A stretch of DNA of 64,000 bases, from the NCBI GenBank assembly GCA_951406725.2, contig OX597817.1:116436001-116500000 (forward strand). The letters are read 5' to 3'. The notes under the pieces were generated by a model that was given only the letters and a program-made list of their open reading frames with translations, was not told the origin of the DNA and made no database searches. Shown here piece by piece: positions 3,025 through 49,885 of this stretch (position 1 is its first letter; each line of letters begins with the position of its first letter). The translations under genes were made by a program, and so were the position numbers. Source of the DNA: Octopus vulgaris. Taxonomy: Eukaryota.

Positions 3025-3244
3025 TTGGGTCCGGTTTCCTGGTTTCCGTGACATCTGTGTTCCCCAGCTGGATGGGACGCCAGTCCATCGAAGCGTTACT
3101 CAATTTTGCCGGCTGAGTGGACTGGAGCAACGTGAAATGAAGTGTTTTGCTCAAGAACACACCGCGTCGCCCGGTCCAGGATTGGAAACCACAATCTTAC
3201 GATCATGCTGCTGACGCCCTAACCACTAAGCTACGCGCCTCCAC
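3025..3244 (-). mobile_element. tRNA-derived SINE, family C
   Basis: Minus strand reads GGAGGCGCGTAGCTTAGTGGTTAGG (A box) ... GGTTTCCAATCC (B-like), then a CORE/V-like TTCTTGAGCAAAACACTTCATTTCACGTTGCTCCAGTCCACTCAGC. Confidence 0.75.
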
Positions 3245-3777
3245 ATACTAAGCTATACTATACGCGAAAGTATTGTTAATTAAATAAATTATCTATTCTT
3301 GGACTTCTTATAAGCATCAAGCTCAAAATATGTCTACAAACATATATGTTAAGAACTCAATATATTTTCTTCTAATATTGTCACGGAAAAAACAGAGAGT
3401 TATAACCATCACATAAAATATCAAATGTAAATATAACAGCTTGTTGTCGATGCGAAATACTGCTGATAAGGGCATAAGCTCTTTGGGCGGTATATTATTT
3501 TGTCTTGCGATTCGTCTGTACTAATGCGTTTAATGTTTTTGCTTACATATTTTTTTCAAATACGCAATAATTTGTACTTACAATAAGTCAAACTGTGTAG
3601 TGTTCAAAATTACTTGACATCTTCACCCACGTCCTTCTTCGCTTGTCTCTTTTGTTTATCTTGAAAATTGTTTCACTAATAATAAAAAATATAGATTTAC
3701 TGTTTCAAGCATTAAGTATTCTTAACACTGAACGTGTTAAAATATACCATATATATATATATATATATATACAGACA

Positions 3778-17280: not shown

Positions 17281-20932
<3,652 letters not shown>

Positions 20933-29454: not shown

Positions 29455-32400
29455 CAGCTACTGGGGGTGCTGCTGCTGATGATGATAAATGAGGCCCCTG
29501 TACGAAGATTAGTGGTATTTTTTTTAATGAAAACTTAATAAATATTTAACTTTACTTGAAAAGAAACTTTCTAACAGTACACCAAATCGCTTGTCCAATG
29601 GTTATACAGGAAGCGCGCCCGTTAGGAAGCTGCCAGCCTGATGGCGAAAAATTTTCAAATGGCAGAATATCTTCCTGGAAGGTCACTTAAACGGTATTTG
29701 TCCCAAATTAAGCCCCCAAAATTCACCGCCACGACGACCAAAAAATCAAAAAGTAAAAGAACTAAATAGAACCGGGAAGAATATAAAGAAGTAATATATG
29801 CTTATTACTTTGCATTAAGTAGGCCAACCCAAGAGAAACACACCGCAAACTCCTACAGAATTTGGAGGAGCCGGAATCCAGCTAGCAGACCAAACCTGGA
29901 TGAAAACAGATTACCAAATGTTAGAAGAGATATCTTCAGAAATACCAGACTCACAGATGCAGAATTAACCTCTATTAAAAAAGTGGTATAGAATGACGTA
30001 AATGTAAGTCAGGATAGAAATAACGAAGCTGAGGAAAGGAAAGTTGGGTCAAAAGCATTGACTGAAAGGCGACCGTCTGCCGAAACGACTCAAGATCCTG
30101 AAGAAAAAGGAAAATATAATGACCCTAGAAAAAACAGCCCGGAAAATGATGTCGAAACAGAATTTGAAGACCACATGTTTGTTGAACAACACAGAAAATC
30201 TATCATTGAAATGAAGCAAGAAGTTTTGAATGAGCTTGCAGTTGTAGGACATACAACTATGAATGATAGGGAACCACTCCATAAACTCCCAAATGCACAC
30301 CAACATAAAACACAAATAAAAATTGGCAACTGCGTTACACAAGAAATCATACACCAACTAAAACCCGATCTTAATGAATTAAATGTAATTATTTACTCTG
30401 TCGCTAAGGTAATCGAAAGACACTGTTTAACACCCAAAAAGTCAACAATACCAAATTCGAAACGAAAATCAAACTGGAGGAGTAGAATTGAAACTGAAAT
30501 TGAATCATTGCGAAGGGAGATATCAATATTAACTGAGTTAATCTCTGGAAATGATGTAAGATCAAGAAAAGGCAGCAAGATTGTGAGAAAATATGGACAC
30601 TCAACAAGAGAAAAACTAATGTCAGCGAAAGAAACACTTAAACAAATTCTACAAACAAAATAAGTTGTTCAAATATAATGTCAAATCATTTTACAGGGAA
30701 ATAGGGAAAGAAAAAATAACCATTGAAAATCCACTCCTAATGGAAGAAGTTGAAAAATTTTGGAAGGGGATCTGGAGTGATGAGAAACCGTACAATGAAA
30801 ATGCAGACTGGATCAAACGCACCCAAGATACCTACAAAAATCTACAAGAAAAGGTATGGGAAGACATCTCGATCACCGACCTAAGGAGGACACTAACGAA
30901 GGCCCATAAGTGGAAATCCCCTGGTATTGATAGAGTACCAAATTTCTGGCTTTCATCACTCTGGTCTGCACACAAAATGTTAGTAATACTATTTAATAGA
31001 ATTATGAAAGACCAGGAAAAAACACCTCATTGGATGGCAAATGGTATTACTTACCTCCTCCCCCAAAATAACAAAACGAAAGACCCAAAAAACTACCGGC
31101 CTATAACATGTTTATCTACTACCTATAAGATTTTGACTTCTATTCTGGTAGAGAAAACATATACATTTATGGAAGAGAATAAACTCTTTCTCACTGAACA
31201 AAAAGGATGCAGACGAGGCACGTACGGATGCAAAGATCAGCTCCTAATTAATCGCATGATCCTTTAGAACTGCAATAACAAGCGCAGATATCTCAGCTCT
31301 TCATGGATTGATTATAAATAAAGCCTTTGACAGCATACCGCATTCGTGGATTCTAAAATTATAATATGTCACTATGGAACACGAAGCTCCAATTATATCA
31401 TTCTAATGGGGTATTGCACTCAAACAACATTAGCATAAACTGGAATTTTCCAAGGTGACTCACTTTCACCACTAATTTTTTGCATAGCACTAATACCACT
31501 CTCAAATGAACTGAATAGCACATGATATGGCTACAAAATTGACAACAGGAAAATAAGCCATCTATTTTATATGGATGATTTAAAGCTATATGGCAAAAAT
31601 GATGAAGAGCTTGAAGGATTATTACATACCGTGAAAGGATTCAGTGATTATATCGGTATGGAGTTTGGCCTTGAAAAGTGTGCCAAAGCCACTTTTAAGA
31701 AAGGGAAATTGGTAAAGTCTAGTTCAATCGAATTAGATTTCGAAACAGTAATAAATCAAGGTTCTGGTAACAAGCATGCAAGCATGAAAGAGAAGGTTAG
31801 GAAGGAATGTTATAGAAGAGTTCGAGCAGTCCTGAAGTCTGAGCTGAATGCATATAATAATGTGTTAGTCATAAATTCCTTAGCAGTACCAGTTGTTCTT
31901 TATAGCTTCAATGTGCTTAACTGGAATACCAGTGAAATAATGAAAATTGACAGAAAAATCCGCAAGCTACTGACTTGTAATAAGATGCACCACCCAAAGG
32001 CAGACGTGGATCGCCTTTACCTTCCTAGAGCTCAGGGAGGTCGAGGGTTGATCCAGCTTGAACTTACATACAAAACCACCACAATCGGACTGGCCAAATA
32101 TGAAACCTTCACTCTCTGCTTTTAGCCCTGAGCTTCGTAACCATTGGTGCGTGTTTCTGGTCGACATCAGCTTGTTTGCTACACGCCACATACTTACCAT
32201 GGAGAGGTTCCTGTTCCCATCTGCTAGCTAAATTTTCATGTGCTTTTGTCTTTGCAATTAATTTCATTTTTTTTTGCAGCTGCAGTTGGCGCATCTCCTT
32301 CAGCCTGATCAATCTGGTGGGTAGCTAAGAGATCAGCAGCGAATTTTTTGCTCTCTTTCAGAATAGAGTGAAGTTTTCCAACGATTGGATGCTAAAACTT

Positions 32401-33149
32401 GTTAAAAAACATGAAAGACCTAAAAAAACTTCACTCTATTCTGAAAGAGAGCAAAAAATTCGCTGCTGATCTCTTAGCTACCCACCAGATTGATCAGGCT
32501 GAAGGAGATGCGCCAACTGCAGCTGCAAAAAAAAAATTAAATTAATTGCAAAGACAAAAGCACATGAAAATTTAGCTAGCAGTTGGGGACAGAAACCTCT
32601 CCATGGCAAGTATGTGGCGTGTAGCAAACAAGCTGACGTCGACCAGAAACACACGCACCAATGGTTACGAAGCTCAGGGCTAAAAGCAGAGAGTGAAGGT
32701 TTCATATTAGCTGCTCAAGACCAAAGCTTATTAACCCGGAACTACCTAACCAATGTGATGAAAAATGGAGCTGACCCAAAATGCCGATTCTGTAACGATG
32801 AGATTGAAACAATTGACGACCTAATCCCAGGGTGTAGAGCCTTAGCACCTGCAGAATATAAAGCAAGACGTGACAGAGTCGGCCAGTATTTATATTGGAC
32901 AATATGTCGGTATTATAAAACCAAAACCGCTGACAAATGGTATAAACAACCTCTTGAAGCTGTGACTGAGGGAGAAAATGTGTCGATTCTATGGGACTTT
33001 CCCGTACAGACCGACAAGACTATAAAAGCTAATAAACCGGATATTATTATAAAAGATCAGACAAAAACATGTGTTTATTAATTGACATGAGTATCCCTTG
33101 TGATCACAATATAGCGGCGAAAGAATTTGACAAGATTAGTAAATATAAA
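29455..33149 (+). mobile_element. Near-full-length, decayed R4/Dong-clade RLE non-LTR retrotransposon
   Basis: N-terminal REEYKEVIYAYY; RT motifs WKSPGIDRVPNFW, NYRPITCL, EQKGC..G..GCKDQL, GIFQGDSLSPLIF, HLFYMDDLKLY; zinc knuckle CRFC...(H>D)...C; RLE KPDIII..D/IDMSIP..K..KY. Multiple stops and deletions; 3' end cut off; preceded by (TAA)n. Confidence 0.93.
32097..32708. repeat. Inverted duplication inside the Dong ORF (arms 32097-32377 and 32425-32708, 47-nt spacer)
   Basis: The left arm is the reverse complement of the right arm with a few substitutions and indels; visible as mirrored ORFs in the track. Confidence 0.95.
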
Positions 33150-33154
33150 TATAG

Positions 33155-33895
33155 TAATTAATAATTTTACCAAGCTGTGTTCAGTATGTAAAAAGACCAT
33201 TTACGGTATGTTTAAAACATTACTTTATATAATTAGGGTTCAGCAAAAAAAATTATTTTACCACACAAAGTTCGGTGTGTGGTAAAGTAAATTTTTTTGC
33301 TGAACCCTAATTATATAAAGTAATGTTTTAAACATACCGTAAATGGTCTTTTTACATACTGAACACTGCTTGGTAAAATTATTAATTAATAATTAATTAA
33401 TTTTACCCTTATTATTATTGACAATATAATGCCATCCCTGATAACAAACTACAGATCCCTCTGTAGGTAATTGTTGCTCTATAACTCACGTGGGTGGACG
33501 GGGAAGGATGCAAAGCCTCATTCTCACGTTTTGAATTCGTTAGTACTAATGGTCGAAGGGGTTTCGTCTGGGATTACTCAAATCAGACAGGTATTTTCGA
33601 GTTTTAGTGCTCTCAAATTTAAACTTAACGAAATCTTGGGCTGATGACAGGAATGTTGATATAGGTATGTATTTCTAGAATCTCTATATCTAACTAACCC
33701 AGAAACGGCGTTCTCAAGTAATCGATGTACGAGTGATCTTTCGTTATTTTTCCCTCTATGCCTACGTGAATTGTTTTTGAGTATACATTGTCTGGGAGAC
33801 TCTTCTTATAGTAGAGGAAATAGCTAAATACTTTGGCTGCTATTTCTAAAATTTCGGTGTGTGGTAAAGTGAATTTTTTGGCTGAACCCTAATTA
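33155..33895 (+). mobile_element. Non-coding Penelope-like / retrozyme-like unit with inverted 5' arm, HHR and direct terminal redundancy
   Basis: Palindrome 33155-33388 (113-bp arms, 8-nt loop); TTCGGTGTGTGGTAAAGT...GCTGAACCCTAATTA repeated at 33271 and 33853 (period 582); HHR at 33635. Confidence 0.8.
33635..33718 (+). ncRNA. Type I hammerhead ribozyme with long stem II and GUU site
   Basis: CTTGGG-CTGATGA-[GTTGATATAG/CTATATC(T)AAC hairpin]-GAAAC-GGC-GTT-CTCAAG; stem I is 6 bp with one G.U. Confidence 0.72.
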
Positions 33896-34079
33896 GAAGC
33901 ATATATATATATATATATGTACACACACACAGGTACTCATTCATAAAAGAAATCATTTAAACCCACCATTCTTTTGACCTGCACTCGCTCACCTTACTAT
34001 TCGTATGCCTCCCTCCTCCCACTTGGTTTGAACCCTTGAACCTTTAGAACCTTCTAGATTCTTCTACATTCAGCCACTC

Positions 34080-34098
34080 TGACGTCACTCCTTATAAA
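34080..34098 (+). promoter_or_regulatory. CRE palindrome plus TATA box upstream of HHR
   Basis: TGACGTCA at 34080-34087 and TATAAA at 34093-34098; AATAAA at 34265-34270 after the ribozyme. Confidence 0.4.
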
Positions 34099-34182
34099 GA
34101 GACACTCATTATCGCCATGGGCTCCTTGAGAGCGGTCAGCTAAAAGCTTTTTGTGCATTTTGATGTCGACATAAGTTCCTTG

Positions 34183-34267
34183 ATTTTCCTGATGAGAAAT
34201 CTGCATAATGTACTCCTTATTCCTTCGGAATTAGGAATATGCAGCCTTCGAAACATATGTCGAGAAT
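34183..34267 (+). ncRNA. Type I hammerhead ribozyme with intact consensus core
   Basis: ATTTTC-CTGATGA-GAA..CTGCATA..TCCT..TTCC ttc GGAA..AGGA..TATGCAG..TTC-GAAAC-ATAT-GTC^GAGAAT. Palindromic stem III ACATATGT; predicted cleavage after C34261. Confidence 0.85.
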
Positions 34268-34588
34268 AAAGGATATTTGTTAACTAGTCGTTCAACTCCA
34301 TTCTTTCATATACTTATAATTTTAAAATAAACATACAAATTTCCGCACGAAGACACGTAGTATATGCCCTAGGGACGTAGCTTCAACCGTGTTCTTTCTG
34401 ATGTGAATTTGCTACCCAGGTATCGGTTATCTTTCGAATTATCCTTAATAAGATAATTAATTCAACTACTCAAATATATATATATATATATATATGCTTC
34501 TTTATCTTCGTCTCTTATATTTGAGCACTTCTTGTGCAGTCCTATAAACCCTTTTGTTTCTATAAGAGACAAATATTATATATATATA

Positions 34589-49299: not shown

Positions 49300-49885
49300 A
49301 AGAATATCTTTATTTGGTTATTAATGCTACACTTGGTTGGATGTTAAAAATATCTTAATATCTTAATATTTATTCAAGTCGGTCGTCTGTATTTCTGACA
49401 AGCAAAGCTCCATTTCATATCGTCTTCGTCCAATGCCCATATCATTAGATAGGGATGGTACATGACTTTTATTTTTGTCTTTGAAAGTTGCCAGGATTTG
49501 TGTGCACGCTTCTCTCAACGGGTTGTCTATCATTCTGATATACGTCTTTGCTACTCTGTCGGGATCCGTGATTTTGGCCTTGTATATAATTTCTTTCTCG
49601 AGATAGTTGTTATTTAGTGGACAATGACTTTGACATCTACAGTTACATTGCCTTTCGGAGGTATTTCCACTGTATTTATTTTTACTGTGGTTGCGTATCA
49701 TGGACTCTATATTGGGAAGGCAACTATAGCTAACTTCAACTGTGTGTATGTTGAAGATCTGGTATTTGTGTGAATGTTGGAAGTGATTGTCTATTAATTT
49801 TTAGAATTTCCTAGCTATGTTAGCGGCTACACTAATGCTATAAGTTGAGCTAAACCATAAGATTTTCCTTTGTCTGCGTATTCTT
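49300..49885 (-). pseudogene. Penelope-like (Neptune-type) element C-terminus: Cys-rich linker plus GIY-YIG endonuclease
   Basis: RKILWF..Y, NIARKF..LID.HF, IFN..TV.VSYSCLPNI, CNCR....CPL, IIYKAKI...KTYIRM (decayed GIY-YIG). Confidence 0.85.

Follow-up and report, generated by a model that had tools for sequence, protein, structure and literature searches.

A 5'-truncated Penelope-like element of Octopus vulgaris carrying a likely CRE/TATA promoter and a hammerhead ribozyme predicted to cut as a dimer

Results

The cassette is the end of a Penelope-like element inserted in a TA microsatellite

The window analyzed here is a stretch of 64,000 nucleotides of the Octopus vulgaris genome (contig OX597817.1, positions 116,436,001 to 116,500,000 of the forward strand), to which all unlabeled positions refer. 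We conclude with good confidence that its positions 33922..34477 (+ strand; 556 bp, devoid of ORF sequence) are the 5'-truncated 3' end (pseudo-LTR and tail) of a ~3.55-kb, Hydra-like Penelope-like element (PLE). The insertion lies in a TA microsatellite and contains a CRE and a TATA box that likely act as a promoter, as well as a hammerhead for which cleavage is predicted only in the dimeric state. The initial annotation had described a compact cassette made of a CRE, a TATA box, a hammerhead core and an AATAAA hexamer, and a motif scan reproduced the coordinates of all four. The cassette is real, but the limits given for it (33960..34300) were too narrow, as comparison with paralogues extends the unit to 33922-34477.

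This segment is 94 to 98% identical to 29 other loci and corresponds to nt ~3123-3693 of the natural long copy L034, the ORF of which ends at ~2828. Copies of the cassette are many and dispersed (96-98% identity; 40 of 2,102 candidates scored), and an exact 28-mer of the subfamily occurs 328 times in the host genome, which is 2.8 Gb in size and rich in microsatellites. Paralogues reach variable distances in the 5' direction, four of them extending about 1.5 kb or more; among 30 copies, the 5' ends were scattered from 5 to >1,500 nt upstream of the predicted ribozyme cut. Inverted 5' copies are also present in the family. The insertion is bordered upstream by a (TA)n target microsatellite (33901..33918), with which an older, hammerhead-bearing repeat ends, and downstream by another (TA)n run (34474..34495), the initial ~4 nt of which are common to the element. 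A TA-type run follows the 3' end of 27/30 family copies. No target-site duplication was callable within the flanking (TA)n.

In tandem copies from several subfamilies, which are ~71-95% identical to one another here, the cassette is found directly upstream of the ATG of the next unit, in the order CRE, TATA, hammerhead, ~270 nt and ATG. A single segment therefore serves one copy as its 3' UTR and the following copy as its 5' region, as expected for a PLE pseudo-LTR (pLTR). The view that the cassette is an LTR-like unit with its own promoter thus stands as far as the conserved CRE-like and TATA motifs are concerned, but not for a self-contained LTR. The structure established for the family is ORF, 3' UTR, CRE, TATA, hammerhead, 5' UTR and next ATG, with a pair of fixed 3' junctions that are separated by about 150 nt.

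The majority of copies are short and devoid of the ORF, which might suggest a stand-alone, non-autonomous unit with fixed ends, such as a solo LTR, a SINE or a retrozyme. This is very improbable, given the scattered 5' ends and the absence of TG..CA ends and of a short tandem unit, and it is refuted by the long copies L031, L034, L072, L073 and L075, where the cassette is contiguous with the reverse transcriptase (RT) ORF. The solo LTR of an LTR retrotransposon, which would have fixed TG..CA ends and a target-site duplication, was rejected for the scattered 5' ends and the two 3' ends in (TA)n; the continuity with the RT ORF likewise led us to discard a non-LTR retrozyme, that is, an ORF-less tandem repeat of 150-450 nt. 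An R4/RLE-type LINE ending near 33200 was rejected as the parent of the cassette, since paralogues continue 5' into PLE sequence.

The parent element encodes a telomerase-like RT and a GIY-YIG endonuclease without the usual linker

The longer copies of the family comprise a ~3.55-kb unit with one ORF of ~880 codons, and natural open frames of 896 and 833 codons were found in sister subfamilies. The ORF encodes a telomerase-like RT with a YRDD motif and, C-terminally, a GIY-YIG domain, and carries low-complexity, Asn-rich inserts. A predicted model of the 896-codon frame (pLDDT 73) had telomerase RTs (TERTs) as its top three PDB matches with Foldseek. The endonuclease was assigned by motif alignment and not by a profile match: the residues Y..YIG..R..H..E..N are invariant compared with 7 homologues and agree by eye with published Hydra endonucleases. 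A Pfam search of the family proteins gave no RT or GIY-YIG match, only chance-level matches, and a PDB sequence search with the family profile returned no matches. The named protein relatives were from Argonauta hians and Octopus bimaculoides only, with 35-37% identity.

The family shares with the Hydra clade, for example Hydra-1_Obim as described in PMC8557442, a single ORF, a C-terminal GIY-YIG domain, the DKT version of the DKG motif (SDKT in the family ORFs) and the lack of a CCHH motif; a single Cys precedes YIG in the family endonuclease, with no CxxC. The RT motifs are also similar (FIQFDI..FYPSI, MG..D, GLYRDD and NFLDVTL), and both groups have a sense hammerhead near the 3' end and (TA)n targets (PMC8557442). 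In contrast, the CxCX5C linker that precedes the endonuclease was present in 7/7 aligned homologues but in 0/28 parsed family copies (30 examined, 2 unparsed), and the unit of 3.55 kb exceeds the 'generally <3 kb' given for the clade in the same source. The hammerhead at 34177..34273 differs in sequence from that of Hydra-1_Obim; furthermore, in the Hydra hammerheads listed in PMC8557442 stem II is short and loop III measures 1-3 nt, whereas stem II of the present one spans 54 nt and its palindrome has no loop. As the motifs match the Hydra clade while CxCX5C is missing, the family, placed by motifs compared by eye, would be an EN+ PLE best filed as Hydra-like rather than as a strict Hydra member.

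A CRE and a TATA box with constant spacing likely form a promoter

A CRE-like palindrome, TGACGTCA, lies at 34080..34087 (+), followed at 34093..34098 (+) by the TATA box-like motif TATAAA. The + strand of this AT-rich window contains TATAAA 86 times and AATAAA 103 times, so that such motifs only gain weight through conservation. Across subfamilies, the CRE-like element (TGACGTCA, TGGCGTCA or TGACATCA) is located 5 nt ahead of the TATA motif (TATAAA, TATAAC or TATAGA); the length of the spacer is kept while its letters vary by subfamily, and the distance from TATA to the hammerhead core is 89-103 nt, depending on the subfamily. The pattern CRE-N5-TATA-N(75-105)-hammerhead core had 725 matches in the genome and 0 in the control, though a pattern selects its own matches. 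In unselected long copies, subfamily G had the CRE without the TATA box, some E copies had TCTAAC instead, and H had neither. The expectation that both motifs are co-conserved in paralogues was thus borne out for most subfamilies, with a constant 5-nt spacing, and failed for G, H and some E copies with respect to TATA and for H with respect to the CRE. This constant spacing favors the view that the CRE and the TATA box likely form a promoter, from which transcription is predicted to start near 34120-34125.

In Drosophila virilis Penelope (PMC2377424) and in the anole Poseidon element PAc (PMC11167929), the partial-tandem pLTR supplies the promoter, as it likely does in the present family. Penelope has an internal promoter devoid of a TATA box (Schostak et al. 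2008, PMC2377424), whereas here CRE and TATA are upstream of the predicted start. Contigs from four runs, presumed to be RNA although none of the listed runs is recorded as such, covered most bins of the element, and their summed depth peaked over the hammerhead in 2 of the 4; strand, start, level and cleavage are not readable from such contigs, and we give them no weight here.

The hammerhead is supported by covariation and is predicted to act as a dimer

A motif scan of both strands of the window identified a sole complete type-I hammerhead, at 34177..34273 (+). Stem I (34177-34188/34262-34273) comprises 11 bp and one mismatch. It is followed by the core CUGAUGA (CTGATGA in the DNA, 34189-34195), a stem II of 54 nt (34196-34249) and GAAA (34250-34253, or (C)GAAA at 34249-34253). 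Stem III consists of a perfect, loop-less palindrome (ACATATGT / ACAUAUGU, 34253..34260), predicted to pair between two ribozymes, and the GTC at 34259-34261 places the predicted cut after C34261. The core CUGANGA, GAAA, NUH and stems I-III are all present, in agreement with the full-consensus hammerhead that had been proposed, and covariation supports it.

The 121-nt hammerhead region folded with a z-score of -3.13, 2 of 200 shuffles being as good. A pattern of the same design had 8,722 matches in the genome and 0 when reversed, and an Rfam search yielded no hammerhead at the gathering threshold nor at E<=10. Covariation was evaluated on 16 hammerheads from eight subfamilies, hand-picked from 64 distinct matches with the omission of truncated or rearranged ones. 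In this set, 10 of 35 pairs had double-sided changes, which 0/500 shuffles reached (the shuffles ignore relatedness), and pairing amounted to 88% as compared with 30-44% in slid controls. The core was nearly fixed except for N7 (U/A) and H17 (C/A), two positions where hammerheads tolerate variation. The RNAalifold consensus contained stems I and II and missed stem III.

The palindrome was variable: ACAUAUGU, ACAUGUGU and ACACGUGU were all found in the family, and an unrelated tandem family had ACGUACGU. Its central pair was U-A in 11, U-G in 3 and C-G in 2 of the 16 hammerheads, a natural covariation that supports dimer pairing. Folding pointed in the same direction. The minimum free energy (MFE) structure of the present copy as a monomer misfolds the core, while two copies reach -58.0 versus 2 x -25.3 kcal/mol and adopt the catalytic double hammerhead. 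Stem III was missing from the monomer MFE structure of 8/8 subfamily representatives, and all 8 intermolecular palindrome pairs were formed in the dimer MFE structure of 6/8. In the dimer folds of B, E, G and H (4/8) the core was partly mispaired, and E had no intermolecular palindrome pairs.

PLE hammerheads have been described as acting as dimers through a palindromic stem III within the pLTR (PMC4209133; reviewed in PMC6765202, including Lunse et al. 2016). Like the dimeric PLE hammerheads of Cervera and de la Pena (2014, PMC4209133), the present one is of type I, occupies a pLTR, has G10.1-C11.1 and a palindromic stem III, and is a dimer, though here by prediction only. It differs from them in not being minimal, with its mismatched 11-bp stem I and its long, multi-segment stem II.

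Could the hammerhead nevertheless cleave as a monomer, with the help of its long stems I and II or of an element protein acting as a chaperone, so that solo copies would cleave host read-through RNA? The catalytic monomer lies just 2.2 kcal/mol above the monomer MFE, and an anole PLE hammerhead cleaves once protein is added (PMC11167929). Yet, the center of the palindrome covaries although it cannot pair within one molecule, and single motifs of metazoan PLE hammerheads showed no activity in the data of PMC4209133. We therefore regard monomeric cleavage as unlikely. With a stem III center that covaries and two copies that co-fold into a catalytic dimer, the lone hammerhead at 34177..34273, albeit intact in its core, probably cuts poorly; the small energy gap makes this likely rather than certain. 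As the sole intact core, it is still the best candidate for an active ribozyme in the window, as initially put forward, but it is predicted to require a second copy.

The AATAAA hexamer belongs to stem I

AATAAA (34265..34270, +) starts at the fourth base past the cut and lies within the 3' strand of stem I. Its expected retention in paralogues was confirmed, A[AG]TAAA being kept in 26/29 sampled motifs; this speaks for the initial annotation, in that non-template transcripts might use the hexamer as a poly(A) signal. In subfamily E, AATAAA is replaced by AGTAAA and the partner base has co-changed, converting a U-A into a C-G pair in stem I. In G and H the hexamer is shifted by 3-4 nt and is partly unpaired, and some F copies carry AATAATATAAA and no hexamer.

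The proposal that ribozyme folding and polyadenylation compete was not supported: poly(A) was found in 0/30 family insertions (chosen by their sequence downstream of the cut), and stem I makes up for the change to AGTAAA with a matching change in the partner base. Spelled out, the proposal is that the same PLE end would contain a working poly(A) signal (AATAAA or AGTAAA) hidden by stem I in the 5' pLTR and exposed by cleavage or refolding. The hexamer is indeed frequent near the cut (AATAAA within 20 nt in 18/29 motifs and AGTAAA in 8 more, versus 2.9% of random 20-nt windows for either), G and H retain it in spite of the shift, and a U/GU-rich stretch follows it. However, the motifs share ancestry and stem I by itself demands an A-rich 3' strand; moreover, the hexamer-free F copies, the compensated AGTAAA, and the insertions, which run about 40-210 nt beyond the hexamer before the junction and lack poly(A), all argue against such a switch, which we hold to be improbable. 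A poly(A) role is unsupported, and AATAAA chiefly provides stem I with its 3' strand.

Insertions end at two internal sites and derive from templates intact at the cut

A first preferred 3' junction, likely RT start site I, is found at 34312..34329 (+). In one sample of 30 copies, 14 ended at site I, 13 at site II and 3 fell outside these two groups. In a second sample, which overlaps the first and is thus not independent, 17 of the 30 ended near 34309-34333 and ten near 34462-34478, with TA runs after, and three were rearranged; L104 (1/30) was unparsed in the first sample. The sequence between the two sites (34330..34477, +) forms a tail of ~150 nt. This tail is identical to the 5' UTR that the following tandem unit carries and ends at site II, ~55 nt before the ATG; tandem copies continue past site II to the ATG. 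Both junctions have a few AT bases in common with the target.

All 30 copies span the predicted cut site intact, and none starts at it, the nearest doing so 5 nt upstream. Genome-wide, 452 matches to a loose pattern were compatible with an intact cut region, versus 511 for a downstream 23-mer alone. The intact cut in 30/30 copies and the absence of poly(A) indicate that the templates had not stayed open after a cut and had not received poly(A) close to the hexamer. In inverted pairs, one arm ended at each 3' site in 7/8 cases.

By analogy with PAc, we infer two internal RT start sites. Internal RT initiation has been described for the anole PLE, with uncleaved RNA as the dominant template or substrate (PMC11167929), and a tail at one end, an uncleaved RNA template and, probably, two RT start sites are common to D. 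virilis Penelope, PAc and the present family (PMC2377424, PMC11167929). A tail on one end is a PLE signature; it is ~150 nt here versus 30-40 nt in PLEs. The Penelope tail of 34-37 bp is at the start of the ORF (PMC2377424), whereas here it is entirely in the 5' UTR. PAc primes within its ORF without target homology (Frangieh et al. 2024, PMC11167929), in contrast with the few AT bases shared here.

Within the tail, GGTATCGGTTA (34419..34429, +) is the complement of the stretch that immediately precedes the ATG of full-length copies. It has, in addition, the look of a splice donor, CAG|GTATCG. Penelope of the D. virilis type retains a spliceosomal intron in its 5' UTR; in the present family, the candidate donor and AGs farther downstream are conserved, which a 5' UTR helix explains as well. 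This predicted helix closes at the ATG and leaves junction site II in its unpaired loop; 96% of its cells are paired, but with 0 compensatory changes in 12 copies it is not proven. The motif TTCAAC(T/C) occurs ahead of both 3' junctions and again between them (34291-34299, 34383-34389 and 34462-34471) and is a candidate RT-binding or priming signal.

These elements may be assembled as follows. In a partial tandem, the CRE/TATA of the upstream copy would drive the downstream ORF, with a start ~60 nt before the ribozyme. The two hammerheads of the tandem transcript would pair through the 8-nt palindrome and could excise a unit-length RNA, while a lone hammerhead would cut poorly unless it met another copy or the protein of the element. 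The RT-endonuclease would then nick (TA)n, and cDNA synthesis would start internally, at one or the other of the two AU-rich sites, on RNA that is uncut or has been re-ligated; we propose that this choice leaves the tail on just one arm of inverted insertions.

Related and neighboring elements

An array of at least 7 decayed ~3.2-3.5-kb copies from a sister subfamily (L065-L067, G000:C20:23330357-23354753) is probably the result of local amplification; in all its sampled copies the core is mutated to CUGGUGA and the palindrome is disrupted.

Several repeats surround the insertion. A 594-bp hammerhead repeat is represented at 33268-33900 (+) by one degenerate unit (~61% identity), which still shows a relic CTGATGA at 33641 and into whose terminal (TA)n the PLE fragment is inserted. 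At L200:1274-3836 (G000:C1:10836274-10838836), this 594-bp unit is present as 4.3 tandem copies, 99% identical, each ending in (TA)n and containing a long-stem hammerhead and the palindrome ACGTACGT. From its sequence, the repeat appears retrozyme-like, although its unit exceeds the described 150-450 nt. Farther upstream, 29992-33200 (+) is occupied by a non-LTR retrotransposon with frameshifts, weak matches to RVT_1 and zf-RVT and a C-terminal KPDI motif, which we take to be R4/Dong-like. An open frame at 19404-19826 (+) has no Pfam match and presumably resembles a Helitron/PIF1 helicase fragment. A decayed endonuclease fragment of a Hydra-type PLE at 49363-49800 (-) retains a CNCRxxxxCP linker, indicating that linker-bearing and linker-less families coexist in the genome.

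Discussion

The arrangement found at 33922-34477, a promoter and a palindromic hammerhead in the pseudo-LTR of a PLE, is already known, and the element is a PLE of a known kind. Of mild interest are its lack of a linker, its long tail, its likely TATA-type promoter and the natural covariation that supports a dimer. It shares with metazoan non-LTR retrozymes the type-I hammerhead and the kinship with PLE pLTRs, but is the end of a coding element and not a short, ORF-less tandem repeat (PMC7229834; Li et al. 2026, 10.64898/2026.07.22.740005). Penelope-like families are listed in a repeat annotation of Octopus vulgaris from 2026, the main text of which contains neither 'ribozyme' nor 'Hydra' (PMC13282606). 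Our literature searches, aimed at subjects other than linker loss or tail length, found no description of this PLE family.

As to the role of PLE hammerheads, the covariation at the palindrome center supports a dimer, and every sampled insertion arose from RNA that was intact at the cut. Craig et al. (2021, PMC8557442 / 10.1101/2021.04.23.441226) hypothesized that the linker zinc finger mediates the targeting of PLEs to (TA)n; in the present family this linker is absent, yet the targeting persists. A tentative and rather doubtful interpretation is that a Hydra-derived lineage dropped the linker and hits (TA)n via RNA-DNA pairing or the GIY-YIG core, with a CRE/TATA gated by a strictly dimeric ribozyme, and spread several hundred such modules. 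Under this interpretation, the RNA-DNA pairing would involve two AU-rich priming sites, located in a 5' UTR with secondary structure, and would account for the ~150-nt tail. At least 725 CRE-TATA-hammerhead modules might also function as promoters dispersed through the octopus genome.
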